64,000 bases of DNA from a virus (Duplodnaviria > Caudoviricetes): the IMG/VR virus record IMGVR_UViG_3300003320_000853; one strand, given 5' to 3'. Shown here one piece after another: positions 3,846 through 43,581 of the stretch. Position 1 is the stretch's first letter. Every line of letters begins with the position of its first letter. The notes under the pieces are model-generated. The model did no database searches, had not been told where the DNA came from, and was given only the letters and a program-made list of their open reading frames with translations. A program made the position numbers and the translations under genes.

Positions 3846-3862
3846 GGGGCCCCTTACACCGC

Positions 3863-12003: not shown

Positions 12004-12043
12004 GTACACCATTCTGGGGGTTGTGGCCTAGGTGTTGGTGTAG
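12004..12043. promoter_or_regulatory. Divergent pair of GGTGTA elements
   Basis: GTACACC at 12004-12010 and GGTGTAG at 12037-12043, 9 and 8 nt from divergent ATGs. Confidence 0.7.
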
Positions 12044-16315: not shown

Positions 16316-16921
16316 ATGGCGGCGCACCCACTCCCTCCCCGGCCGTGCGCTCAGTGCGGCAAAGACATCCCCACCTTCATCCTCGTCGACGGCCACAAGC
16401 GGTACCACCGCGGCCGGAAGTATTGCTTCGACTGCAATCCGTTCGATAGCTACCGGGGGCGAACGATCTCAGGGGCGCTCCAACGCGACGCTCCGATCCG
16501 GACGTGCCGGCGATGCAAAGCCGATCTGTCGGCTGACGACTTCCACACGAACAATCGGAACCGAGGCTACAAAAACTCCTACTGCAAGGACTGCCAAACG
16601 GCTCGGATCCGTAGGGGGCGTCAGCAGTTCAAGGATGAGTGCATCGCCTACAAAGGGGGTCGATGTGAAAGTTGCGGCTATGACCGATGCCGCGACGCTC
16701 TCGACTTCCATCACCGCGATCCATCGGCGAAGGAGTTCAAGCTATCCAAACATCCACGCAAGGTGCTCGACCAGACACTCAAGGACGAGTTGGACAAGTG
16801 CTCCCTGCTCTGTTCCAACTGCCATCGCGAAGAACACGCGGATCCGAATGCGTTCCGCAACGGGGCAACCCCCAGGCGGTGTAAGGAAGAGGCATGCCCC
16901 GCGCCCGCACCTCTTCCGTGA
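16316..16921 (+). CDS. HNH endonuclease with N-terminal zinc fingers
   Basis: KGGRCESCGY..ALDFHHRDP..K...ELDKC.LLCSNCHR; same family as 8250..8822. Confidence 0.85.
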   Translation: MAAHPLPPRPCAQCGKDIPTFILVDGHKRYHRGRKYCFDCNPFDSYRGRTISGALQRDAPIRTCRRCKADLSADDFHTNNRNRGYKNSYCKDCQTARIRRGRQQFKDECIAYKGGRCESCGYDRCRDALDFHHRDPSAKEFKLSKHPRKVLDQTLKDELDKCSLLCSNCHREEHADPNAFRNGATPRRCKEEACPAPAPLP

Positions 16922-22080: not shown

Positions 22081-22392
22081 ATGAACTCCAAGACGCCGCG
22101 GGCCGGAAGGTTCACCAAGGTTCTCCCCGCCGGTTTCTATTACGCCCACGTGCGCGAAGGTTACACAGTGGGCGTAGACGGTGCGAAGATCAAGCCCAAG
22201 ACCGGCAAGAGCCTGATCGGTCGACACTCAGGCAAGTCCAAAATTTTCGGCAGGAACGACGCTATCTACTGGGCGTGCCGCGAGGCCCAGCGGGACGGAC
22301 ACAACGTCTCGGTCTACGAGTCAGACGGCGAAGCTCCGCCGGTCGAAATCGCCGTTTCGATTGCGGAATTGGCGAAAGTCAACCCGGTCTAG
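22081..22392 (+). CDS. Hypothetical protein
   Basis: GCTGTAG 7 nt upstream. Confidence 0.7.
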   Translation: MNSKTPRAGRFTKVLPAGFYYAHVREGYTVGVDGAKIKPKTGKSLIGRHSGKSKIFGRNDAIYWACREAQRDGHNVSVYESDGEAPPVEIAVSIAELAKVNPV

Positions 22393-22421
22393 GGACCCCT
22401 TCCGGTGTAGATCATGCTCCT

Positions 22422-24944
22422 ATGCCCAATACCAATTCCGCATCCTACCAGATCGCCAACGGGCTCTTCCTCGTCCTCTCGACCCTGACGGGCGAGACGG
22501 CGAAGCCCGCGGCTCCCTCGGGGGCGAACCATTTCGTGGTCATCGACCGCTCGGGCAGCATGTACGGGGTCATGCCCCGCATGCGCGAGCAGTTCAAGTC
22601 GAAGATCCTCGGCCTCATGAAGGACGGGGACACCCTCACCCTCCTCGTGTTCTCCAGCCGGGATCAGTTCACGACCGTCCTGGAGGGCGTCTCCGTCGCG
22701 ACGCTCAAGGATCTCCGCGACGTCCACAATCGGATCGATCGCGAGCTTCGCGCGACGAACTTGACCGGCTTCAAGGATCCCCTCGACGAGGTCAGCCGGC
22801 TCGTCGGCCGCGTGAAGTCGAAGAACCCCGGCCCGTGCGATCTCTGGTTCCTCTCGGACGGCTACGACAACCAGTGGAGCCGCCCGCAGATCCTCAAGGC
22901 GATGGCGGACGCCTCGAAGGAAATGGCCGCTGTCACCGTGGTCGAGTTCGGGGACTACGCCGACCGCGCTCTCCTCGCCGAGATGGCCACCGTGGCGGGC
23001 GGCAAGCACATCTACGCCGAGGACTTCGACGCCTACGAGCCCGTTTTCGAGACGGCCATGGCGAGCACGGGCAGCGGCGCCCCCAAGGTCGAGGTGCCCG
23101 TCGAGGGCGACCCCATCGGCGGCTTCGCGTTCGCGCTCTCCGGGAGCGACCTCCTGAGCTCCTCGGTCGTCAACGGTCACGTCGCGGTGCCCGCCGACCT
23201 CAAGACGTTCGCGTACCTCTCCCCGTCCCCCGTGGGCATCGACGAGAGGTCGGGCCTTCCGGATCGCTTGAATCCGAAGGATCCCAGCACCATGCAGTTC
23301 CTCGCACACGCGTACGCGGCCCTGAGCCTCTTCTCCGTCCGCATGCGGAGCGATCTCGTCTTCCCGATCCTCAAGGCGCTCGGCGACGTGAAGTTCGTGA
23401 AGGACTTCTCCGTGTGCTTCGGGAAGCAGCGCTACTCGGTCTTCATGGACTCGACGCGGGCGGCGGCCTTCGGTACCGGCCGGTTCGCCCAGGGCTACGA
23501 CCCCAGCGCCGTCCCCCCGGACGACTGCTTCACCATCTGGACGCTGCTCTCGATCCTGACCGAGGAGAAGGGCGCGAAGCTCCTCATCGACCGCTTCGCG
23601 GACGGCTACAAGAAGGTCGGCCGCGCCACCGTGAACGCCTCCGAGAAGCTCACCAAAGAGGAGGCCGAGAAGGTCGCGGCCCTCCAGGTGCAGATCGACG
23701 AGATCACCACCAAGACCGCGGGCGCCAAGGGGACGAAGCTCCTCAAGTCGGCCGCCGAGGAGAAGGCCAAGCTCCAGGCCGAGATCGACGCCATCCTGGC
23801 GAGCAAGAAGGACCCCCCGAAGTTCGAGGCGGATCCCTGCCCCGAGGGCATCGACATCACGGGCCTCGTCTTCAACGAGGAGCAGCCGAACATTTCCATC
23901 CAGACCAAGCGCACGGGCAAGGTCAACATCGAGGAGGCGGTGGACGCGGCCATCGCGGACCCGGCGAACGCGGCCATCGTCCCGAGCCTCAAGAAGCTGC
24001 CCCGTGTGATCGACAGCTTCCAGTTCAGGAACTACGCGATCGTCAAGGACGGCCTGGTCAACGTGGACGAGCTGCCGGTCACGATGCCCCGTGCCATGTG
24101 GGACAAGCTTCTCGCGGCGGGTCTCTCGATGGACGCCATCACCGAGATCGGCAACCTCCACGCGAACGGCGACGTCACTGTGAGCTTCAAGCTCCGCCAG
24201 ATCCCGGTGATGAACCGGGCGATGGTCAAGGCGGCCAGCGGTCGGCAGCTCTTCGAGCTGGAGTACAACCTCTGCCGCGCCAAGGCGGCCCAGAAGGTCT
24301 ACAACAGCCTCAAGAAGGAGGCAGCGGGCGAGAGGGTCTCCGCGGGCTTCGAGGCGGCCTACGGCGCCGAGGCGGCCAAGTGGCTCAAGGAAGGCCCGCT
24401 CGGGCTCACCGACTACAGCGGCTACGGCCCCAAGCGTGTCCAGGCGGATCCCGTGGACTTCTATATGGGCAAGTTCTTGAACGTGCTCATCTACGAGGAG
24501 GGGGCACTGGCGGCCATCGCCGCTGGCAAGACGGCTCAGGGCAAGCTCGACTCGCTTCCGACCGTCAAAGAGGCCGAGGAGGCCCGCACCAAGGGCGGCA
24601 AGCTCAAGGGCGGCAAGGCGCTCATGGCCGACGTGCTGGCCGAGGTCGAGACCCAGAAGAAGGCGCTCGACAACGACACGGCGTTCACCGCGTGGCTCGT
24701 CGAGAAGCAGGAGGAGACCGTCAAGGAGACGCGCCGGCTCATCCTGGAGAAGGCCCGCTTGGCCTTCGTCCTCCTCGTCGGCCAGGTGTGGTTCACCGAG
24801 CCGGAGTTCGCCGTGCCCGTCGAGATCACCCTCAAGGGCAAGAAGGATGACAAGAAGCTCCTCGGCTCGACGCACACCTTCACCCACGCCGGCCAGAAGT
24901 TCGATTTCATCGCCGGCCAGGAAGAGCGCAAGGTTCTGATCTAG
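22422..24944 (+). CDS. Large vWA domain protein (840 aa)
   Basis: MIDAS IDRSGSM...T...LSDGYDN; strong codon bias; GGTGTAG 11 nt upstream. Confidence 0.85.
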   Translation: MPNTNSASYQIANGLFLVLSTLTGETAKPAAPSGANHFVVIDRSGSMYGVMPRMREQFKSKILGLMKDGDTLTLLVFSSRDQFTTVLEGVSVATLKDLRDVHNRIDRELRATNLTGFKDPLDEVSRLVGRVKSKNPGPCDLWFLSDGYDNQWSRPQILKAMADASKEMAAVTVVEFGDYADRALLAEMATVAGGKHIYAEDFDAYEPVFETAMASTGSGAPKVEVPVEGDPIGGFAFALSGSDLLSSSVVNGHVAVPADLKTFAYLSPSPVGIDERSGLPDRLNPKDPSTMQFLAHAYAALSLFSVRMRSDLVFPILKALGDVKFVKDFSVCFGKQRYSVFMDSTRAAAFGTGRFAQGYDPSAVPPDDCFTIWTLLSILTEEKGAKLLIDRFADGYKKVGRATVNASEKLTKEEAEKVAALQVQIDEITTKTAGAKGTKLLKSAAEEKAKLQAEIDAILASKKDPPKFEADPCPEGIDITGLVFNEEQPNISIQTKRTGKVNIEEAVDAAIADPANAAIVPSLKKLPRVIDSFQFRNYAIVKDGLVNVDELPVTMPRAMWDKLLAAGLSMDAITEIGNLHANGDVTVSFKLRQIPVMNRAMVKAASGRQLFELEYNLCRAKAAQKVYNSLKKEAAGERVSAGFEAAYGAEAAKWLKEGPLGLTDYSGYGPKRVQADPVDFYMGKFLNVLIYEEGALAAIAAGKTAQGKLDSLPTVKEAEEARTKGGKLKGGKALMADVLAEVETQKKALDNDTAFTAWLVEKQEETVKETRRLILEKARLAFVLLVGQVWFTEPEFAVPVEITLKGKKDDKKLLGSTHTFTHAGQKFDFIAGQEERKVLI

Positions 24945-26524: not shown

Positions 26525-27811
26525 ATGGCTCATCGAAAAGCCTCGACACGACGTATTGAGGTTTACGGCATCTCCGGCAGCAAGGGGCATGGCAAGGACA
26601 CCTTCGCCAACCTCATCCTCCGGGTACATCCTGGGTTCAGAATTCTGCATTTTGCGGACTCTCTGAAGCGGATGTCCACTCGGATCTTCGGGCTGACGAA
26701 CGCGCAGATGAACGACCCAAATCTCAAAGAAGCGCCCCTCGGACGACCCCTCGACATGGACCCCTATGTCCCTGCTATGTGCAAGGAGACTGGGCTCCTG
26801 ATCCAGCCTGCGGGGAAGGTAGCCCATAGCCCGCGGGAGGTCATGCAATTCTTTGGAACGGAGTATGTGCGTCGAGCACAGGATGACTACTGGGTCCAGA
26901 GGTTGCTCGCCGAGGTAGGAACCTCGCACCGCATTCTTATCCCCGATGCGAGGTTCCTGAACGAGACGGAGGCTCTTCGATCAATCGGAGGGATCATCAT
27001 CAAGATCGAGAGGATCGACGCTCCACCCCCCAAAGACGGACACGCCTCGGAAACCGAGATGGCCAAGATCGTTCCCGACCTCCTCGTTGGAGCCAAGACG
27101 GGGGACCTGTCCCTTCCGATGAGGGTCGCGACCCTCATCGCGGTGAACCGTTTCGAGGCGGCTTCCAGCTACGACTACCGAAAGGCTCAAGCGGCGATCC
27201 AATCCTACACATCAGGGCGGGGAGCGGAGGCGAGCGCACTGTTGCTTGGACACAAGCATTCCTACGCGCTTTACAACATCCTGGACTACTATGGGATCCT
27301 CCGTCGGAGGCAGGCTGCGAACCGCATCCAACACGAGACGGTCGACGGTGTCGTGGGGAAGCGCTGCATCAAGTGCGTGTGGAGACCCCTTACCGAGTTC
27401 AACGCGAGCACCAAGGCGTGGGACGGAAAGCACAGTCTATGCCGGGATTGTGCGTCCAAGGACAACCAGGCGCGATACCAAAAGCATGGGAAGACGGACA
27501 CCCTGTTGAGAATCTTCATGGCCTCGAAGAAACAGGCTGCGTACCGTGGCATCTCCTTCAATCTGGACTATGCCGACGTCCAAATGCTATGGGATGACCA
27601 GAGGGGCCGCTGCAAGTACAGCGGGTTGGAGATGACTCCCGAACCCAAGTCTCCCAACAAGATCACGATCGATCGGATCGACTCCTCGAAGGGCTATGAG
27701 AAGGGGAACGTCGTCCTTTGTAGCTACCGCGTCAACCTGATGAAGCGCGAGATGTCCCTGAAGGAGTTCCGTGAGATGATTCAGGTACTCCATGCACATC
27801 TGATGGTGTAG
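26525..27811 (+). CDS. Deoxynucleotide monophosphate kinase fused to a C-terminal HNH-type endonuclease
   Basis: GSKGHGKDT, FADSLK, PREVMQ.FGTE, D.RF.NE, HASE; then CKYSG..IDRIDSSKGY..GNVVLC...NLMK. Confidence 0.85.
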   Translation: MAHRKASTRRIEVYGISGSKGHGKDTFANLILRVHPGFRILHFADSLKRMSTRIFGLTNAQMNDPNLKEAPLGRPLDMDPYVPAMCKETGLLIQPAGKVAHSPREVMQFFGTEYVRRAQDDYWVQRLLAEVGTSHRILIPDARFLNETEALRSIGGIIIKIERIDAPPPKDGHASETEMAKIVPDLLVGAKTGDLSLPMRVATLIAVNRFEAASSYDYRKAQAAIQSYTSGRGAEASALLLGHKHSYALYNILDYYGILRRRQAANRIQHETVDGVVGKRCIKCVWRPLTEFNASTKAWDGKHSLCRDCASKDNQARYQKHGKTDTLLRIFMASKKQAAYRGISFNLDYADVQMLWDDQRGRCKYSGLEMTPEPKSPNKITIDRIDSSKGYEKGNVVLCSYRVNLMKREMSLKEFREMIQVLHAHLMV

Positions 27812-28956: not shown

Positions 28957-29481
28957 ATGCACACGTCGCTGGAATGGTGGCAGGCAGTGAAGGGGGACGA
29001 CAAGCTGCTCAACGACTGGCTCATCCGGCAGTACCGGGGTGAGGTAACGGCCGCGAAGCGCATCGAGCTCTTCCGGGATAGATACGTCCTGGATATTGAA
29101 ACGAGGCGCATCCTGACGCTCATCGCGGCACAGGAAGCGAAGCACGCCGCGTGGGTGCTCGATCTTCTCCGGGCACGGGACATCACGCCGAGCATCAAGG
29201 GGGCGGAGGATCGCTACTGGAAGGAGACGCTGCCGGCCATCGAGGACTTCGAGACCGGAGCAGCCGTGGGGGCTCACGCCGAGGAGATGCGCCTCGCCCG
29301 GATCCGGGTCATCTGCGAGGACGACACGGCTCCGGAGGACATCCGGGACGTCTTCCAGAAGATCCTCCCGGAGGAGGAGTTCCACGCACGCACCTTCCGC
29401 AAGCTCGCGGGCAACGAGGCGTACTCCCGGACGATGGGCGCTCACGAGAAGGGCATGGCTCTTCTCGGCCTCACCGCCTGA
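28957..29481 (+). CDS. Ferritin-like diiron protein
   Basis: E...QEAKH...EE...EEEFH four-helix ligand pattern. Confidence 0.75.
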   Translation: MHTSLEWWQAVKGDDKLLNDWLIRQYRGEVTAAKRIELFRDRYVLDIETRRILTLIAAQEAKHAAWVLDLLRARDITPSIKGAEDRYWKETLPAIEDFETGAAVGAHAEEMRLARIRVICEDDTAPEDIRDVFQKILPEEEFHARTFRKLAGNEAYSRTMGAHEKGMALLGLTA

Positions 29482-29504
29482 TCTTGGGGGTGTATCTTCC
29501 CCTG

Positions 29505-30023
29505 GTGGAAGACCCCATCGACGAGCTGTGGGACGAGCTGCATCCACCTCGGCCCCACGAAATTCGTCCCCTCCCTGAAGGCACCCACGTTGACCCCATC
29601 CGGGAGATCGACGGCCTGTTTTTGCGCTCCGAAATCCACCTTGTGCTCGCCTGGACGTGGGCCGACCTCGGGAAGGCGCTCGATCGGCTTCGTGCCATGA
29701 CACCCCCACGGGTCACCGTCGACAAGCTCACGAGTCACCTTCCCATCCTGCTCCTCGGGAACGAGCACTGGACGGTCATCCAGGAAGGACTTGAAAAGCT
29801 CCCCGGCCGCAACCGCCAAGCGTTCATCGGCACGATGAACACGTTCGTCATCGACTGCTTCGGCTTCTCGTCCCTGGAGGACGTCCAGGAGAGGATCTTG
29901 TTCGCAGACGGCTCGGCCAGGTTCAGCCGGATGGGCCGAGGCAGCGCAGACGAGTTCTTCGAGGCATACAAGACGGGGATCCAGCACACGTCCGAGATCC
30001 TTCGCACCATGGGGATTTGGTGA
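29505..30023 (+). CDS. Hypothetical protein with N-terminal tag (EDPIDELWDELHPP)
   Basis: GTG 9 nt after GGTGTAT. Confidence 0.7.
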   Translation: MEDPIDELWDELHPPRPHEIRPLPEGTHVDPIREIDGLFLRSEIHLVLAWTWADLGKALDRLRAMTPPRVTVDKLTSHLPILLLGNEHWTVIQEGLEKLPGRNRQAFIGTMNTFVIDCFGFSSLEDVQERILFADGSARFSRMGRGSADEFFEAYKTGIQHTSEILRTMGIW

Positions 30024-30066
30024 GGTCCGCGTTGATTGTCCCTGGTCTCGGGCTGTAGAGAGAAGC

Positions 30067-30237
30067 ATGAGCACCGGCTTCGACTTCAACGAGCTCTTCT
30101 ATGCGCGGCCCGAGAACGTGGTCAGGCTCGCCCGCTCGCTCGGCATCCAGGTAGACGGCCGGAAGCACGCCGACGTTTGCCGGGACGTCGTGCGCTGGTA
30201 CAAGCGGAACCCGCAGCCGAAGCCGAAAAACCGCTGA
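30067..30237 (+). CDS. Small hypothetical protein (56 aa, MSTGFDFNELFY...)
   Basis: Own translation; GCTGTAG 8 nt upstream. Confidence 0.65.
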   Translation: MSTGFDFNELFYARPENVVRLARSLGIQVDGRKHADVCRDVVRWYKRNPQPKPKNR

Positions 30238-30281
30238 GTTTTCGGCAATCTACGAGGATTCGACGTACGCGCCTTGCTTTC

Positions 30282-30319
30282 GTGTCCGGATGACACCATC
30301 TTTGGTGTACAGAAGACAC
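30282..30319 (+). promoter_or_regulatory. Two NrtR-type operators, the second overlapping the GGTGTA element
   Basis: GTGTC-CGGAT-GACAC (30282-30296) and GTGTA-CAGAA-GACAC (30305-30319) fit the GT-N7-AC NrtR box, directly before nrtR. Confidence 0.7.
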
Positions 30320-30320
30320 G

Positions 30321-31049
30321 ATGTCACACAGTTACAAATGGCCTCGACCGTCCCTGACGGTCGACTGTGTTCTCTTCGGCGTCGATCCGCTGGCGAACGG
30401 CGCCTTCAGCCTTCAGGTGCTCCTCATCCGGCGGAAGGGCGAACCTTTCAAGGGCCGGTGGGCGTTGCCTGGCGGGTTCGTCAACGTCACGGACGAGGGC
30501 GGCCAGGGGGAGTCTCTGGAGGACGCGGCTCGCCGGGAGCTGAGGGAGGAGACGGGGGCGGACGTCGACTACCTCGAACAGCTCTACACGTTCGGGAAGC
30601 CGGGGCGTGATCCACGAGGCCGGGTCATCTCGGTGGCCTTCATGGCGCTCACGCGGTCGAAGGCGCACGAGGTCCAGGGGGCCGACGATGCGGCCGAGGC
30701 GCAGTGGGTCTCGATCGATGCCGTGGCCCTCTCGTGCAACCTGGCCTTCGATCACGACGAGATCCTCACGAAGGCGATCGATCGGCTGCGGGCCAAGGTC
30801 CGCTACGAGCCGATCGGCTTCAACCTCCTGCCGCCGAAGTTCAGCCTCACGCAGCTCCAGAGGCTCTACGAGGCGATCCTCGGGAGGGATCTCGACAAGC
30901 GCAACTTCCGCAAGCGGATCCTCGCCATGGGGATCCTCGTGGAGAGCGGCAAGCAGACGAAGACTCCGCACCGGGCTGCTCTCCTCTATCGGTTCGACAA
31001 GACGGCCTACGACAAGGCCGTCAAGAAGGGCTTCAACTTCGAGATTTGA
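30321..31049 (+). CDS. nrtR: NrtR-family regulator (Nudix + winged HTH)
   Basis: WALPGGFV, AARRELREETG, QLYTFG..RDPR, LAFDH, F.L.QLQ.LYEAILG..LDKRNFRK. Confidence 0.9.
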   Translation: MSHSYKWPRPSLTVDCVLFGVDPLANGAFSLQVLLIRRKGEPFKGRWALPGGFVNVTDEGGQGESLEDAARRELREETGADVDYLEQLYTFGKPGRDPRGRVISVAFMALTRSKAHEVQGADDAAEAQWVSIDAVALSCNLAFDHDEILTKAIDRLRAKVRYEPIGFNLLPPKFSLTQLQRLYEAILGRDLDKRNFRKRILAMGILVESGKQTKTPHRAALLYRFDKTAYDKAVKKGFNFEI

Positions 31050-31062
31050 CAGGGAAACACAC

Positions 31063-31398
31063 ATGACCCCCAAAGGAATTCGGTGGCTCCAGACGGTAGG
31101 ACGGATCGCGCGTGATCCGCGTCTCGAAAGACTCCCCGCTAGTTTGCGTGCAGACTACCTGCTCACGCTCAAGTCTTTCGAGATGCTGATCAGGGGTCTG
31201 GACGCAAATAACACGTGGTCGCCGGGCTGCATGACGGACTTGGCGCTCTTTGCCTTCGAGCTGAACTACGTGGACTTCGTGGGGGAAAGGCAGCTCTCCA
31301 AGGGAAGCTGTGACTTCATGCGCAAGATTTGCACGGAGATGCGGCAGAGACTCGCAAACCGTGTACAAGGTGTTGGAGTAAGCCGTCTTCACTCCTAA
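31063..31398 (+). CDS. Hypothetical protein
   Basis: ORF between nrtR and nadV. Confidence 0.6.
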   Translation: MTPKGIRWLQTVGRIARDPRLERLPASLRADYLLTLKSFEMLIRGLDANNTWSPGCMTDLALFAFELNYVDFVGERQLSKGSCDFMRKICTEMRQRLANRVQGVGVSRLHS

Positions 31399-31422
31399 CT
31401 TCCGCAAACACAAGGAAATGAC

Positions 31423-32802
31423 ATGAATACGAACCTCATCCTCGACATGGACAGCTACAAGGCCAGCCACTCGGTCCAGTATCCGCCGGGCACGACCGGC
31501 ATGTTCTCGTACCTGGAGAGCCGCGGGGGCCGCTACGACCGCACCGTCTTCTTTGGCCTCCAGTACCTCCTCCAGGAGTACCTCTCGAAGCCCGTTACCA
31601 GCGCGGACGTCGAGGAGGCCAGCGCCTTCCTCGGTCCCCACGGGGAGCCATTCCCCCGCGGGGGTTGGGATCGCATCGTCGACAAGTTCGGCGGCTACCT
31701 CCCGATCCGCATCCGCGCCGTCGAGGAGGGCTCCGTCGTTCCGACCCACAACGCGCTCATGACGGTGGAGTCGACCGACCCCGAGACCTTCTGGGTCGCC
31801 TCGTGGCTCGAAGACCAGTTCGTGCGCCTCTGGTACCCGATCACGGTCGCGACGCAGAGCTACATGATCAAGCGGATCATCCTCGCGGCCCTCCAGAAGT
31901 CGGCGGACGATCCGGCGGCCGAGATCAACTTCAAGCTCCACGACTTCGGCAGCCGTGGCGTGTCGAGCCGCGAGACGGCCGGCATCGGCGGCATGGCCCA
32001 CCTGGTGAACTTCATGGGCAGTGACACGGTCGAGGGCATCCGCTTCGCCAACCACTTCTACAACCACGCGATGGCGGCGTTCTCGATCCCCGCGGCCGAG
32101 CACAGCACGATCACCTCGTGGGGTCGCGAGAACGAGGAGGCGGCCTACCGCAACATGATCCGGCAGTTCGCCGGCCCGGGCAAGCTGGTCGCGTGCGTCT
32201 CGGACTCGTACGACATCTACGCCGCCGTCGAGCACCTCTGGGGCGGCAGCCTCAAGGACGAGGTCAAGGCCAGCGGCGGAACGCTCGTCATCCGCCCGGA
32301 CAGCGGCGAGCCGGTCGACGTCATCCTCAAGTGCCTCCAGCTCTTGGAGGCCAAGGTCGGGATGACGACCAACTCGAAGGGCTACAAGGTGCTCCCGAGC
32401 TACTTCCGCCTCATCCAGGGGGACGGCGTGAACGAGGAGAGCATCGGGCACATCCTGGCGAGCATGCTTGCGAACGGCTACTCGGCGAGCAACATCGCCT
32501 TCGGCTGCGGCGGCGCGCTCCTCCAGAAGCTCGACCGCGACACCCAGAAGTTCGCGTTCAAGTGCTCGTCCGTCACCGTGAACGGCGTCGAGCGCGACGT
32601 TGTGAAGAGCCCCGTCACCGACCCCGGCAAGCGGTCGAAGGCGGGGCGGATCGATCTGATTCGTGTGGGGGAAGGCTATTTCACGGTCAGGAGCGCGGGG
32701 CCCGGACAGAGCGTCCTCCGGACGGTCTTCGAGAACGGCCGGATCCTCCACACGACGACGCTCGACGAGGTGCGGGCCCGCGTCAACAAGACCCTCTTCT
32801 GA
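31423..32802 (+). CDS. nadV: Nicotinamide phosphoribosyltransferase
   Basis: DSYKASH..QYP, LHDFGSRG, SIPAAEHS, VSDSYD, IRPDSG, IQGDG, RDTQKFAFK. Confidence 0.93.
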   Translation: MNTNLILDMDSYKASHSVQYPPGTTGMFSYLESRGGRYDRTVFFGLQYLLQEYLSKPVTSADVEEASAFLGPHGEPFPRGGWDRIVDKFGGYLPIRIRAVEEGSVVPTHNALMTVESTDPETFWVASWLEDQFVRLWYPITVATQSYMIKRIILAALQKSADDPAAEINFKLHDFGSRGVSSRETAGIGGMAHLVNFMGSDTVEGIRFANHFYNHAMAAFSIPAAEHSTITSWGRENEEAAYRNMIRQFAGPGKLVACVSDSYDIYAAVEHLWGGSLKDEVKASGGTLVIRPDSGEPVDVILKCLQLLEAKVGMTTNSKGYKVLPSYFRLIQGDGVNEESIGHILASMLANGYSASNIAFGCGGALLQKLDRDTQKFAFKCSSVTVNGVERDVVKSPVTDPGKRSKAGRIDLIRVGEGYFTVRSAGPGQSVLRTVFENGRILHTTTLDEVRARVNKTLF

Positions 32803-32812
32803 TCTCCCAACC

Positions 32813-32848
32813 GTTCAGGGGGTCTCTGGTGTAAGCGACCCCCTGAAC
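32813..32848. promoter_or_regulatory. 12-bp inverted repeat enclosing a GGTGTAA element
   Basis: GTTCAGGGGGTC-TCTGGTGTAAGC-GACCCCCTGAAC between nadV and the vWA gene. Confidence 0.55.
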
Positions 32849-32868
32849 CACCACCTAGGAAGAATCAC

Positions 32869-33846
32869 ATGGGATACGAGCACTGGAGTGACGATTTCTA
32901 CAAGCACCGCGAAGAGACGCGAAAGGCGAAGGGAGAGACCGCCTTCGTCTACCACGCGGCCGTCGCGGCGAAGCCCGCCTCGGAGCAGAAGGTGCACGAC
33001 GCGATGAGCCCCAAGCGGAAGCGGGTCCGCGAGGCTCGGGACAGCGCGGATCACCCGAACAGCCTGCCGATCGGCGTGCTCTTCGACATCACGGGCAGCA
33101 TGCAGCGGAGCCCGGTGGCGTTCCAGAGGAAGCTCGGGGACCTGATGACCCGGCTCGTCACGCACGAGTACGTCACCGATCCCCAGATTCTGATCGGTTG
33201 CGTCGGCGACACGAACGACCACGGAGGCGGCTTCGATGGAAGCTGCCAGATCGGCGAATTCGAGTCGGACATCAAGATCGACGACTGCCTCGGCCAGTGC
33301 TGGCTCGCGGGTGGCGGCGGCGGATCCATCGAGGAGAGCTACCAGAACGCGGCCTACTTCTTCGCCCGCCACGTCCAGGCCGACCACATCGAGAAGGGTC
33401 GGGGCAAGGGCTGCCTCTTCATGCTCGGCGACGAGAACCCCTACCCGACCGTCAAGAGGCGGGAGGTCGAGGCGCTCTTCGGCGACACCCTCCAGGAGGA
33501 CATCCCGACGCCCAAGCTCTTCGAGGAGCTGCGCCAGTCCTGGGACGTCTACTTCATCATCCCGCGGGAGACGAACCACGGCACCAACCCGAGCATCCGC
33601 CGCCAGTGGGAGGAGCTCGTCGGCAGGGAGAACGTCTTCTCTCTCGATTCCGCGGAGAACGTCTCCGAGCTGATCGCCCTCATCCTGGGCATCCGCCAGG
33701 GCAAGGTCACCGATCTCGACGCCGCCCGCTCGATCCGCATCGCCGAGGGCATGTCGGCAACGACCGTCCAGTCCCTCATCTCCAGCGTCGCCGACTACGC
33801 ATCCGCCAAGGGCGTCACCGACACCAGCCTCACCGCCCGCCTGTAG
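32869..33846 (+). CDS. vWA-like protein
   Basis: FDITGSM, QIGEFES, GGGGG..ESY, F.LGDE. Confidence 0.8.
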   Translation: MGYEHWSDDFYKHREETRKAKGETAFVYHAAVAAKPASEQKVHDAMSPKRKRVREARDSADHPNSLPIGVLFDITGSMQRSPVAFQRKLGDLMTRLVTHEYVTDPQILIGCVGDTNDHGGGFDGSCQIGEFESDIKIDDCLGQCWLAGGGGGSIEESYQNAAYFFARHVQADHIEKGRGKGCLFMLGDENPYPTVKRREVEALFGDTLQEDIPTPKLFEELRQSWDVYFIIPRETNHGTNPSIRRQWEELVGRENVFSLDSAENVSELIALILGIRQGKVTDLDAARSIRIAEGMSATTVQSLISSVADYASAKGVTDTSLTARL

Positions 33847-33879
33847 ACCCAGCCCCTATCTTTGGGGTAAGAGACCGAC

Positions 33880-34134
33880 ATGTCGGTCTCTTGGGAAACC
33901 AAACGGGTCGTCTTCTCCATCGTCTTCGCCTTCGTCTACATGATCCCCGGAGGGATCGCCGCAGCGCGAAGACACTACCGTCAGACGCCCATCATCGTCA
34001 TGAACACCATCGCAGGATGGACGGGCGTGGGATGGATCGTGGCCCTCGTGTGGAGCCTGACGCCGAGAACGTGGAGTCTCACACCGCGAACCCCCAAGAA
34101 CGGTGTAAGAGATCCCCCATGTGGGTCAAGCTGA
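33880..34134 (+). CDS. Superinfection immunity protein (T4 Imm-like)
   Basis: YxIP..IA..R.H....I...N...GWTGVGWIVALVWS. Confidence 0.8.
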   Translation: MSVSWETKRVVFSIVFAFVYMIPGGIAAARRHYRQTPIIVMNTIAGWTGVGWIVALVWSLTPRTWSLTPRTPKNGVRDPPCGSS

Positions 34135-34313
34135 TGAGCAAGGACGAGCACGTGACGCATCTGGCGAAGGATCTCTCCGGTCCTTCGCCAGACGTCATTG
34201 TATACCAGGATCGCACCTTCGTGTTCGTGCGGGTGGGCAAGGACATGGCCTACGGCCACCTCGTCAACGTGCGAATCTACCACGAGGCCACCGTCACCAC
34301 GATCAAGTCATGA
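34119..34313 (+). CDS. Small hypothetical protein
   Basis: ATG 10 nt after GGTGTAA; stop overlaps purA start. Confidence 0.65.
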   Translation: MWVKLMSKDEHVTHLAKDLSGPSPDVIVYQDRTFVFVRVGKDMAYGHLVNVRIYHEATVTTIKS

Positions 34314-35728
34314 GCACAGCCATCCTCATCGCCGGCCTTGGCTTCGGAGACGAAGGGAAGGGGGCCACGGTCGACTGGCTCACCCGCACCACGGGGGCTC
34401 ACACCGTGGTGCGGTACAACGGAGGGGCGCAAGCTGGCCACAACGTGGTGACCGCCGACGGGCGCCACCACACGTTCTCCCAGTTTGGCGCGGGTACGTT
34501 CGCGGGCGCGAAGACACACCTCAGCCGGCACATGCTGGTCAACCCCATCTTCCTGCTCTCAGAGGGCAAGCACCTTCTGGAGATCGGTGAGAAGGACGTC
34601 TACGACCGGCTCACCGTCGACGAGGGCGCGCTCGTCACGAACCCCTTCCAGGTCTCAGCGAACCGCATCCGCGAGATGGCCCGCAACGAGGGTCGGCACG
34701 GCTCCTGTGGGATGGGGATCGGGGAGACGGTGGCCGACTCCCTCGCTCCTGAGACCCCCAAGCTGTACGTCAACGATCTGTCCAAGCCGGGCACGACCAG
34801 AACGAAGCTCGCAGCCTCCCGCAAGCAGAAGATGATGGAGCTCGTCGAGCTTCATCTGAAGGACTGCCCCGTCTCCAACGCGTCGTGGAACTACATGACG
34901 CTGGCTCAGACCGAGTGCTCCTGTCCCTTCAAGCGCGAGTGGGAGGTGATCGTCGACGAGACGACGGTCGACCTCGCGTTGGAACGCTACGCCGAGTTCG
35001 TCGCCCGCGTTCGGATCGTCCGCTCATACTATCTCTCCGACATCATGCGCGAAGGGACGACCATCTTCGAAGGGGCCCAGGGGATGCTCCTCGACCAGGA
35101 CTATGGGTTCCACCCGTACACGACGTGGACAGACATCACGTTCGGGAACGCCGACGATCTGTTGGCCGTGCAGCGGGGATGGGACACGCGTTCCGAGGGA
35201 GATGTGTTTGTAGCGGAGTTCCTCGAATCCGCTGGGTTCAAGGGGGAGGTGCGCCGGATCGGCGTCCTCCGCAGCTATCACACGCGCCACGGGGCCGGGC
35301 CGTTCCCGACCGAGGACGCATCGCTCGACAACCCCGAGCCTCACAACGCCAACGGGCCCTGGCAGCACGGCTTCAGGCAGGGGCACTTCGACCTCTGCCT
35401 GGCCCGATACGCCGTCGCGGCCATCGGGGGGATCGATGAATTGCACCTGACGCACCTCGACCGCATCCAGAACGAGCAGAAGGTCTGCGTCCAGTACGAC
35501 TCCCAGGGGCACATCATGCACGAGCCATACCACGCGGAGATGTGGGAGTGGAGGAACCAGCTCGATGTCCGTGAGGGAGCAACGAAGAGAATGATGGGGT
35601 ACAAGCCCGTCTACCGCACCCTCCAGTACAGCCCCGAAGGCTTCGCGACCGAGATCGCCAAGCACATGGGTGTAAAGATCGGATCTCTGGCCTATGGGCC
35701 GACGTCTGAGGATCGGAGGACATTGTGA
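34310..35728 (+). CDS. purA: Adenylosuccinate synthetase-like protein
   Basis: GFGDEGKG, RYNGGAQAGH, GSCGMGIG, FEGAQG.LLD, TRHGAGPFPTE, THLD. Confidence 0.85.
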   Translation: MSTAILIAGLGFGDEGKGATVDWLTRTTGAHTVVRYNGGAQAGHNVVTADGRHHTFSQFGAGTFAGAKTHLSRHMLVNPIFLLSEGKHLLEIGEKDVYDRLTVDEGALVTNPFQVSANRIREMARNEGRHGSCGMGIGETVADSLAPETPKLYVNDLSKPGTTRTKLAASRKQKMMELVELHLKDCPVSNASWNYMTLAQTECSCPFKREWEVIVDETTVDLALERYAEFVARVRIVRSYYLSDIMREGTTIFEGAQGMLLDQDYGFHPYTTWTDITFGNADDLLAVQRGWDTRSEGDVFVAEFLESAGFKGEVRRIGVLRSYHTRHGAGPFPTEDASLDNPEPHNANGPWQHGFRQGHFDLCLARYAVAAIGGIDELHLTHLDRIQNEQKVCVQYDSQGHIMHEPYHAEMWEWRNQLDVREGATKRMMGYKPVYRTLQYSPEGFATEIAKHMGVKIGSLAYGPTSEDRRTL

Positions 35729-35844
35729 GCCCGTCGGTCATTTTCGGAATCGGTTTTCTCGTGGGTCTCCTGGAGTACAGCCTCGGCTTTGCCATGGGGT
35801 GGTGGCTCAAGGAGCCCCTCTTGCGACGTTTCAGGAGGCGCTGA
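35725..35844 (+). CDS. 39-aa membrane peptide (MSPSVIFGIGFLVGLLEYSLGFAMGWWLKEPLLRRFRRR)
   Basis: Own translation; GTGA and TGATG overlaps link purA to the kinase gene. Confidence 0.55.
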   Translation: MSPSVIFGIGFLVGLLEYSLGFAMGWWLKEPLLRRFRRR

Positions 35845-36743
35845 TGCCCCGCATCGAGCTTACGGATCTGCCCAAGAATCCCGCCGCGTCCCACGGATCG
35901 GACGGTTGGAGCGCGCTCCTCGACGACTCCCCTTTCGACAGCCCGGAGATCGTCTTCGATACGACGCCGGTCATCTCGGGTGACCTCGCCGACATCTACC
36001 GGGGGTCGCTCAACGGCTCCGAAGTCGCTGTGAAGGTCACGCGCAACGTGGGGGACAACGATCTCGTCGAGCACGAGGCAGGCATCCTCGCAGGGCTCTA
36101 TCCAGATGGAACCGCCGACGAGAAGTTCTACCGCTATCTTCCTCGGCTCATCGCCTCGATCGTGTGGGAGGGCAAGCGGGTCAACATCTTCCCCTGGTAC
36201 GATGGCTTCGTCTCCCTGGAGGACGTCCGGCGGGCTTACCCCGAAGGACTCGACTTCCGGGACATGGTGTGGATGTTCAAGCGCCTCCTCGTGGGCATCG
36301 GCTTCGCCCACACGAAGGACATCGTCCATGGGGCCATCCTCCCGCCCCACGTGATGATCTTCCCGCCCAACCACGGGGCCAAGATCGTCGACTGGTCGTA
36401 TGCCGTGTCGAACGCGAGCCTCAAGAATAGCCGTGTCGGAGCGATGAGCCGGACCTTCCGGCCGTTCTACGCCCCGGAGATCCTCGACCGCCAGCCGCCG
36501 ACGCCGGCCACGGACATCTACATGGCGGCCAAGTGTGCTGTCGCTCTCATCGGCGGGGACGTGACGACCCTCGTCATGCCCGACGCTGTGCCACCTGAAG
36601 TCCAGGGGTTCCTCCGGCGCTGTATACGGGAACAGCCCGGGCTCCGGCCGCAGAACGCCTGGGATCTGCACGATGAGTTCGCCCATCTCCTCCAGTCTCT
36701 CGTCGGACCCCCGACCTTTCGCCCCTTCCGGATGCCGCCTTAG
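35844..36743 (+). CDS. Atypical Ser/Thr protein kinase-like protein
   Basis: VAVK, alphaC Glu, HGAILPPHV (no HRD Asp), DWS, YAPE, TDIY. Confidence 0.8.
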   Translation: MPRIELTDLPKNPAASHGSDGWSALLDDSPFDSPEIVFDTTPVISGDLADIYRGSLNGSEVAVKVTRNVGDNDLVEHEAGILAGLYPDGTADEKFYRYLPRLIASIVWEGKRVNIFPWYDGFVSLEDVRRAYPEGLDFRDMVWMFKRLLVGIGFAHTKDIVHGAILPPHVMIFPPNHGAKIVDWSYAVSNASLKNSRVGAMSRTFRPFYAPEILDRQPPTPATDIYMAAKCAVALIGGDVTTLVMPDAVPPEVQGFLRRCIREQPGLRPQNAWDLHDEFAHLLQSLVGPPTFRPFRMPP

Positions 36744-41522: not shown

Positions 41523-41538
41523 CTACACCGCGGTGTAC
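41523..41538. promoter_or_regulatory. Back-to-back GGTGTA elements forming a palindrome
   Basis: cTACACCGCGGTGTAc, 10 and 9 nt from divergent ATGs. Confidence 0.75.
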
Positions 41539-43480: not shown

Positions 43481-43581
43481 ACCACTATGGGGGAGGGGTT
43501 TCTACACCGGATTCCGTCCAGGGCAAGAAAAAAAGGCTTTTCTGGGGGTTGTAAGGGTCGTTTTGGTGTAGACTGCATGGG

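Follow-up and report, generated by a model that had tools for sequence, protein, structure and literature searches.

Predicted tandem NrtR operators ahead of an nrtR-NAMPT gene cluster in a probable giant phage

We analyzed a stretch of 64,000 nucleotides of viral DNA (Caudoviricetes; IMG/VR record IMGVR_UViG_3300003320_000853), referred to below as the window. Immediately ahead of nrtR, a gene for an NrtR-family protein, lie two adjacent 21-bp palindromes that together span 44 bp (30279-30322). In the reading that we consider likely, these are operators for the repressor encoded downstream; they gate the genes nrtR, orf111 and NAMPT (nicotinamide phosphoribosyltransferase) and are opened by a ligand, most likely ADP-ribose (ADPR). 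Binding itself, repression, the nature of the ligand and transcription of the three genes as one unit are inferred from the features described below.

Direct reading of the sequence bears out the layout that the original prediction had described. A palindrome GTGTC-CGGAT-GACAC (GTGTC-N5-GACAC) occupies 30282-30296, and a second copy, GTGTA-CAGAA-GACAC (GTGTA-N5-GACAC), occupies 30305-30319, the two centers being 23 bp apart. The second copy ends 1 nt 5' of the nrtR ATG (30321), and GGTGTAC at 30304-30310 overlaps it (local sequence across both operators, gccTTGCTTTCGTGTCCGGATGACACCATCTTTGGTGTACAGAAGACACGATG). In their 21-bp form (boxes 1 and 2; Table 1) the two sites are identical at 16 of 21 positions when aligned as direct repeats, and the last two bases of box 2 are the AT of the nrtR start codon. 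Both are 21-bp palindromes with the GT-N7-AC core that defines NrtR operators (Rodionov et al. 2008). A scan for further boxes, which had been proposed as a check, found GTGT-N7-ACAC exactly twice on the two strands of the window (0.58 expected), both times here. With one mismatch allowed, the pattern occurred at background frequency across the window (16 matches, 15.4 expected), so that the operator signal stands on the two exact sites.

The sites were compared with those at 166 loci carrying nrtR homologues (numbered with the prefix L), from 6 viral contigs, 80 genomes and 80 metagenomes; the genomes include Myxococcota, Planctomycetota, Bacteroidota, Verrucomicrobiota and Cyanobacteria. GT-N7-AC sites upstream of the homologous nrtR genes have the consensus TTAGTGT-N7-ACACTAA. 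A 21-bp matrix was trained solely on sites beside nrtR homologues at other loci, with the window excluded, the training sites having been chosen as GT-N7-AC palindromes upstream of nrtR. With this matrix the two boxes were the best positions of the window (Table 1), the third-ranked position scoring 3.8 bits. The maximum in 300 Markov-1 random windows was 13.8 bits, and none reached the 17.3 bits of box 1. Across the 161 loci usable for density, sites of at least 10 bits had a density of 2.5 per kb within 215 bp upstream of nrtR versus 0.077 per kb elsewhere, a 33-fold contrast that is partly circular because the training sites were picked upstream of nrtR. Most of the sites elsewhere precede a neighboring gene, either ~1.5 kb upstream (pncB in L012) or just past nrtR in Myxococcus, Corallococcus and Archangium. 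At Myxococcota loci of these and similar genera (L008, L011, L037, L041, L082, L104, L107 and L120), a promoter with TTGAC and tandem boxes is found directly 3' of nrtR, at +740 to +790 from the nrtR start, and must therefore control the next gene. In L037 this gene had no Pfam match.

The tandem arrangement is itself conserved. Forty distinct tandem pairs were present in the relatives, 36 of them with a spacing of 22-23 bp; the spacing in the window is 23 bp. The distal boxes have the consensus ATAGTGTnnnTnnGACACTAT and the proximal boxes TTGGTGTnGnAnnTACACGAA, and the window boxes match each type in the correct order. In 33 of the 40 pairs, cTTGAC adjoins box 1 in the register of the window, which has cTTGCT at this position. 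This -35 feature played no part in the site search. In the layout of the relatives, the 17-bp spacer is filled by the core of box 1, the -10 element is made up of the 3' end of this box and the linker, and box 2 lies over the site where transcription starts. Of the syntenic relatives, the nearest ones, L087, L088 and L092 (~60-65% identity; nrtR followed by NAMPT), have the same promoter and box layout, and in L087 and L092 box 2 likewise overlaps the start codon and ends in its AT. The closest homologue of the window NrtR, P0002, is 74% identical, and a megablast search of 29000-34000 against the phage collection returned no match. The family-specific motif, the conserved spacing and the conserved promoter register, together with a recognition helix identical to a crystallized one, strongly support the prediction that the two boxes are tandem NrtR operators ahead of nrtR, as originally proposed.

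The helix in question is known from the BtAraR-DNA crystal structure, in which the residues that 'define the GTGT motif' are Lys179, Arg180, Asn181 and Lys184 together with Lys204 and Arg205 of the wing (PMC4666351). The crystallized DNA is GTGT-N7-ACAC; at the araM promoter, two dimers bind tandem 21-bp sites that are separated by 3 bp (PMC4666351). In the window NrtR the recognition helix is D192-K193-R194-N195-F196-R197-K198, and the wing residues are His217-Arg218. The stretch DKRNFRKR is identical in the two proteins (phmmer); the wing arginine is kept, and His217 takes the position of BtAraR Lys204.

Helix and site vary together across the homologous loci. A site of at least 12 bits was present at 67 of the 96 loci with the helix DKRNFRK versus 21 of the 70 with other helices (Fisher p = 4e-7). 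The helix NKRNFRT, found in Bacteroidota including Saprospiraceae, pairs with TTAGTTT-N7-AAACTAA ~1.5 kb upstream of nrtR (L015, L017, L019, L020, L024, L030, L031, L034, L036, L051, L054, L079, L086 and L095). GTGT boxes are absent from phage-contig relatives with the helices DLSNFRK, NRSNFRR or DRGNFRKK. Thus the NrtR helix and its site co-vary as a real operator would predict, DKRNFRK going with GTGT, NKRNFRT with GTTT and the altered phage helices with no boxes. Such a helix-to-motif code could be used to predict the operators of other family members.

The window NrtR combines an N-terminal Nudix domain (Pfam PF00293, NUDIX, 74.7 bits, residues 32-149) with a C-terminal winged helix (PF21906, NrtR_WHD, 91.6 bits versus a cut-off of 27, residues 166-225). 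It aligns over its full length with BtAraR (PDB 5BS6, E 2.7e-44) and with SoNrtR (3GZ5, E 6.6e-32), and its Nudix domain matches those of 3GZ8 and 2QJO. The NCBIfam model NF050029 ('ADPR responsive transcriptional repressor NtrR') scored 186.4 bits and did not reach its equivalog cut-off of 400; judged by this score, the protein is a member of the NrtR family that belongs to another subfamily than the NF050029 equivalog. With RELREETGA, the window NrtR retains an intact core Nudix motif (REUxEExGU), which is conserved at 145 of the 166 homologous loci. The nearest enzymatic relatives of the domain are the ADPR-pyrophosphatase Nudix domains of NadM-type NMNAT/ADPR pyrophosphatase proteins. In PHROGs, the family phrog_1198 ('MutT/NUDIX hydrolase') matches the window NrtR over nearly its whole length. 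Since this match spans the winged helix, some members of phrog_1198 may be transcription factors. Full-length phage proteins with an NrtR-like Nudix and winged-helix architecture carry only the label 'MutT/NUDIX hydrolase', and gp273 of Bacillus phage G (L006, NC_023719 200174-200842) aligns to residues 6-225 of the window NrtR.

NAMPT lies on the same strand, 374 bp downstream of nrtR, which links the repressor gene to a gene of NAD metabolism. Its product matches Pfam NAMPT_N and NAPRTase, NCBIfam NF006629 (622 bits) and phrog_448 (E 2.6e-155). The intervening orf111 had no match in Pfam, NCBIfam or PHROGs, and its Atlas neighbors are generic helical look-alikes alone. Its G+C content at third codon positions (GC3) is 0.69 versus 0.88-0.95 for nrtR, NAMPT and the von Willebrand factor A (vWA) gene. 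The syntenic relatives L087 and L092 lack this gene; in them, 18 and 9 bp, respectively, separate nrtR from NAMPT. The hairpin directly 3' of NAMPT folds as RNA with -29.5 kcal/mol (32796-32872; z = -2.7) and is probably the end of the operon; RNA folding revealed no comparable hairpin between nrtR, orf111 and NAMPT. In view of the Shine-Dalgarno (SD)-like sequences, the absence of an internal GGTGTA or hairpin and the strong hairpin after NAMPT, the sequence most likely encodes a single nrtR-orf111-NAMPT transcription unit. Within the window, this unit alone can be placed under the boxes, whereas the original claim had extended to the NAD salvage genes of the element in general. No cytidylyltransferase-like (Nmnat) match was obtained among the open reading frames (ORFs) tested between 26.5 and 38.5 kb. 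An NMNAT gene is not part of the nrtR-orf111-NAMPT operon, and NAMPT by itself makes no NAD+. Further along lie a PurA-like protein (34121-35728; Adenylsucc_synt, E 7.8e-57), with a vWA-like gene (phrog_2971) upstream, and then a weak protein-kinase-like ORF (35694-36743). vWA and PurA-like neighbors likewise follow nrtR-NAMPT in the viral contig L002/L094 and in L145.

Table 1. Positions of the predicted operators, promoter-like elements, genes and hairpin of the nrtR region.
Feature	Position	Strand	Description
TTGCTT, decayed -35-like hexamer	30274..30279	+	overlaps first base of box 1; in the register of the relatives' cTTGAC(A/T)
Predicted NrtR box 1 (distal), TTCGTGTCCGGATGACACCAT	30279..30299	+	21 bp; core palindrome 30282-30296; 17.3 bits
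CATCTT, weak -10-like hexamer	30297..30302	+	17 nt after TTGCTT; 3' end of box 1, linker and first base of box 2
Predicted NrtR box 2 (proximal), TTGGTGTACAGAAGACACGAT	30302..30322	+	21 bp; core 30305-30319; 19.6 bits
GGTGTA	30304..30309	+	inside box 2; 11 nt before the nrtR ATG
nrtR	30321..31049	+	242 aa; Nudix domain and NrtR winged helix
orf111	31063..31398	+	111 aa, function unassigned; GGGA 7 nt upstream, no GGTGTA
NAMPT (NadV-type nicotinamide phosphoribosyltransferase)	31423..32802	+	AAGGA 7 nt upstream, no GGTGTA
12-bp GC-rich hairpin	32813..32848	+	directly 3' of NAMPT; GGTGTA within the loop

In the proposed mechanism, one NrtR dimer would bind each box through its winged helix, with K193, R194, N195 and K198 reading the GTGT of each half-site. 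Two dimers would cover the promoter, the transcription start and the start codon, and nrtR-orf111-NAMPT would be negatively autoregulated and expressed at a low level. Binding of ligand to the Nudix domain would swing the DNA-binding domains out of register, whereupon the repressor would come off and NAMPT would be made. The ligand would most likely be ADPR, the product of NAD+ cleavage by SIR2/TIR-type defenses, and NAMPT would begin the resynthesis of NAD+ from nicotinamide. According to a preprint, NAD-depleting defenses yield ADPR and nicotinamide (bioRxiv 10.1101/2024.02.11.579819), which makes a link of the operon to defense reasonable. ADPR is known to free both SoNrtR and SyNrtR from DNA (PMC2330246). 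By analogy, the clade-wide NAD-salvage context, the intact core Nudix motif and the NadM-type Nudix relatives incline us towards ADPR as the releasing ligand here. This context includes pncB in L012 and NAMPT together with a CinA/NMNAT-like gene in L087 and L092.

Several points weigh against this reading. The density contrast is partly circular, as stated, and the phage is uncultured and known from root-metagenome sequence alone: the stretch occurs in a single listed DNA run, which is probably its source, and in no listed RNA run. In L002/L094 and L145, both syntenic phage relatives, the recognition helices differ and such boxes are absent, indicating that the switch is not general to this phage gene cluster; among the phage-contig relatives L001-L006, L145 and L152-L162, the same boxes were not found, save for a weak single GT-N7-AC site in L001. 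Moreover, a phage-encoded repressor is absent at infection, so that the circuit can act only after NrtR has built up, unless the boxes are first occupied by a host NrtR with the same specificity. Early in infection, either the operon would fire and then shut itself off, or such a host NrtR would keep it closed. The remaining points concern the ligand. The family has several effectors, ADPR for SoNrtR and SyNrtR, NAD for NdnR and L-arabinose for BtAraR (PMC4666351); among solved relatives, the window NrtR is closest in sequence to BtAraR, which senses arabinose, and not to SoNrtR, which senses ADPR; and the score with the 'ADPR responsive' model is below its cut-off.

These last points are also what speaks for the best of the alternatives, to which we assign a small but real probability: the operators and the repressor are as described and the ligand is not ADPR. 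It could be NAD+ in the role of a co-repressor, as for Corynebacterium NdnR, in which case a drop in NAD+ would open the operon, or some other metabolite of the pyridine or ribose type. In the co-repressor case, NAD depletion would still be sensed by the operon, by a different logic. In electrophoretic mobility shift assays, several dinucleotides besides ADPR weakened the binding of SoNrtR (PMC2330246), which fits this alternative as well. What favors ADPR over another ligand is that the window NrtR, unlike BtAraR, keeps the core Nudix motif, that its nearest enzymatic Nudix relatives are ADPR-pyrophosphatase domains, and that its genomic context is NAD salvage and not sugar use.

A second alternative, which we find distinctly improbable, takes the boxes as an inherited relic or as host-serving. 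Here, nrtR would be transcribed from GGTGTA regardless, the protein would be chiefly an ADPR pyrophosphatase, and the boxes would be unused or held by a host NrtR. The decay of the sigma-70 hexamers relative to the relatives would fit, as would the intact core Nudix motif, a signature that in NuhA accompanies high ADPR pyrophosphatase activity. The motif is also common to NrtR homologues of many bacterial phyla, so that a host NrtR could recognize the boxes. However, all eight core GTGT/ACAC bases in both boxes and the 23-bp spacing have been kept while the adjoining hexamers decayed, which argues for selection on the boxes. In addition, the DNA-contact helix is fully conserved, and the phage relatives with changed helices lack boxes, as co-evolution of protein and site predicts.

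A reading of the palindromes as chance inverted repeats or as an RNA element (a terminator of the upstream 56-codon gene or a leader structure) was rejected as very improbable: a terminator scanner does list 30282-30296 as a 5-bp stem followed by CATCTTTGGT, and the operator region is able to fold as RNA, but terminators are not enriched (2 matches versus 2.7 in shuffles), the fold is unexceptional (z = -1.66; 11 of 200 shuffles fold equally well), and the match to a motif from other genomes, the tandem spacing and the -35 register are left unexplained.

We next consider the promoter. The sigma-70 frame of the window, TTGCTT/CATCTT, matches at 6 of 12 positions, and a sigma-70 scanner found no promoter over 29800-34200; the relatives carry TATgTT or TAAgnn at the position of CATCTT. 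The hexamer GGTGTA occurs in 52 copies in the window, mostly intergenic, 36 of which are followed by ATG or GTG after 8-12 nt, and GGTGTAC occurs 13 times versus 2.45 expected. GGTGTA is a reasonably good candidate for a phage-specific leaderless promoter: with TA as the start of a -10-like hexamer, 5-7 nt would be left to the start codon. A tally of SD sequences versus GGTGTA over 69 starts of genes contained too much noise to settle the question. The overlap of box 2 with GGTGTA had originally been taken as support for the promoter, an argument that does not hold. GGTGT is native to the proximal box, occurring at positions 3-7 in 20 of the 40 tandem pairs of the relatives (GGTGTA in 6 of 40). 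With the -35 register conserved as well (TTGAC adjoining box 1 in 33 of 40), the ancestral sigma-70 frame accounts for the position of the box without any phage motif, and the overlap is not independent evidence. GGTGTA may be a promoter on other grounds. The decayed sigma-70 frame is compatible with a hand-over to the phage GGTGTA signal, short of the force of proof.

Other observations concern the same motif. Copies of GGTGTA include those at 3860(-), 15800, 18915, 25917, 26509 and 27805, and back-to-back pairs lie between divergent genes at 41529(-)/41532, 58936(-)/58942, 61056(-)/61062 and 63108(-)/63114. TGTA variants (CTGTAG, CTTGTAG) precede other genes, for example at 627, 30067, 48853 and 56128; CTGTAG precedes orf56. 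The word CAACCCCCAG(A), or its complement CTGGGGGTTG, recurs just upstream of several GGTGTA copies (12010-12040, 16865-16878, 34088-34102, 43508-43565 and 63095-63125). Upstream of the operators, the 56-codon ORF has its stop codon within a perfect inverted repeat of 8 bp, GCCGAAAA/TTTTCGGC (30222-30246), which may be the end of the preceding transcript.

From its sequence, the cassette that comprises nrtR, NAMPT, the promoter and the boxes resembles a bacterial module that was acquired by the phage. Decay has turned its sigma-70 hexamers TTGACt and TAtgTT into TTGCTT and CATCTT, respectively, and the proximal box is now coincident with the GGTGTA-N11-ATG signal of the phage. The GC3 contrast is consistent with a cassette from a high-GC bacterium into which orf111 was inserted later. 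The bacterial nrtR-NAMPT-(CinA/NMNAT-like) operons on the metagenome contigs L087 and L092 share the gene order, the two boxes, the register of box 1 and -35 and the end of box 2, with an NrtR that is 60-65% identical. They differ in having a good TTGAC(A/T) -35 and a TAAnnn -10, in the position of NAMPT straight after nrtR without orf111, and in an NMNAT-like third gene.

NrtR, its operators, tandem sites and release by ADPR are already textbook knowledge for bacteria. On the prs-nadV promoter of Shewanella oneidensis, SoNrtR binds two tandem sites and is released by ADPR (Rodionov et al. 2008, PMC2330246). The system of the window resembles this one in its Nudix and winged-helix repressor, its 21-bp GT-N7-AC palindromes and the tandem pair before a nadV/NAMPT operon. 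It differs in flanking consensus and subfamily, in nrtR being the first gene of the operon, in lacking an adjacent prs, in its intact core Nudix motif and in its phage carrier. Among solved structures, BtAraR of Bacteroides thetaiotaomicron (5BS6/5DD4; Chang et al. 2015, PMC4666351) comes closest and shares the DKRNFRK helix and the GTGT half-site; its tandem 21-bp sites are 3 bp apart, whereas the window boxes are 2 bp apart. However, BtAraR senses L-arabinose, controls sugar use and has lost the Nudix catalytic residues (RVLAELTG). Because the window protein keeps them (RELREETGA) and adjoins NAMPT, it is, judged by sequence, AraR-like on DNA yet not an AraR.

Among phage systems, NARP2 (Nampt and Nmnat; Vibrio phage KVP40 NadV/NatV) is similar in that, according to the preprint, a phage NAMPT rebuilds NAD+ after an NAD-depleting defense (bioRxiv 10.1101/2024.02.11.579819). 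The searchable text was found to describe no regulator for NARP2, whereas the NAMPT of the window lies behind a repressor gene and an operator pair, with no Nmnat in the operon. NARP1, NARP2 and NARP3 are described as enzyme sets in the parts of the literature open to searching. This searchable literature, including the NARP1/2 preprint, the NARP3 paper, a jumbo-phage survey and a survey of viral NAD-ADPr, yielded neither an account of a phage NrtR together with its operators nor one of a NARP pathway under regulation. In the window, the main salvage enzyme of what is probably a giant phage lies behind a predicted metabolite-sensing repressor, and the operators of this repressor are legible at high confidence. 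The NAMPT counter-defense gene is thus probably switched by a metabolite, most likely ADPR, instead of being always on, which suggests that some phages express counter-defense only during actual NAD destruction.

More tentatively, the operon might be a complete sense-and-respond counter-defense, in which ADPR from an NAD-cleaving effector of the host induces a phage gene for rebuilding NAD. In such a circuit, which we regard as possible but doubtful, a host NrtR could close the operon from the moment of DNA entry, since the operators follow the consensus of bacterial NrtRs of the same clade. With its intact core Nudix motif, the phage NrtR could also hydrolyze the inducer to AMP and ribose-5-phosphate, feeding the synthesis of phosphoribosyl pyrophosphate and resetting the switch.

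The carrier is a probable giant phage. The window NrtR is listed on a contig of 376,986 bp. An 889-aa protein (22275-24944) matches phrog_2426 (E 4.6e-128), with homologues present in 493 phage records, and a 208-kb IMG/VR contig shares synteny with the window over the vWA and PurA-like genes that come after NAMPT. Elsewhere in the window, a 428-aa protein (26525-27811) matches phage dNMP kinase over residues 101-180 alone and has a long unexplained C-terminal extension. The catalytic core of a eukaryotic-type topoisomerase IB is encoded at 1344-2432 (Pfam Topoisom_I, E 2.1e-29) in a phage-like context.

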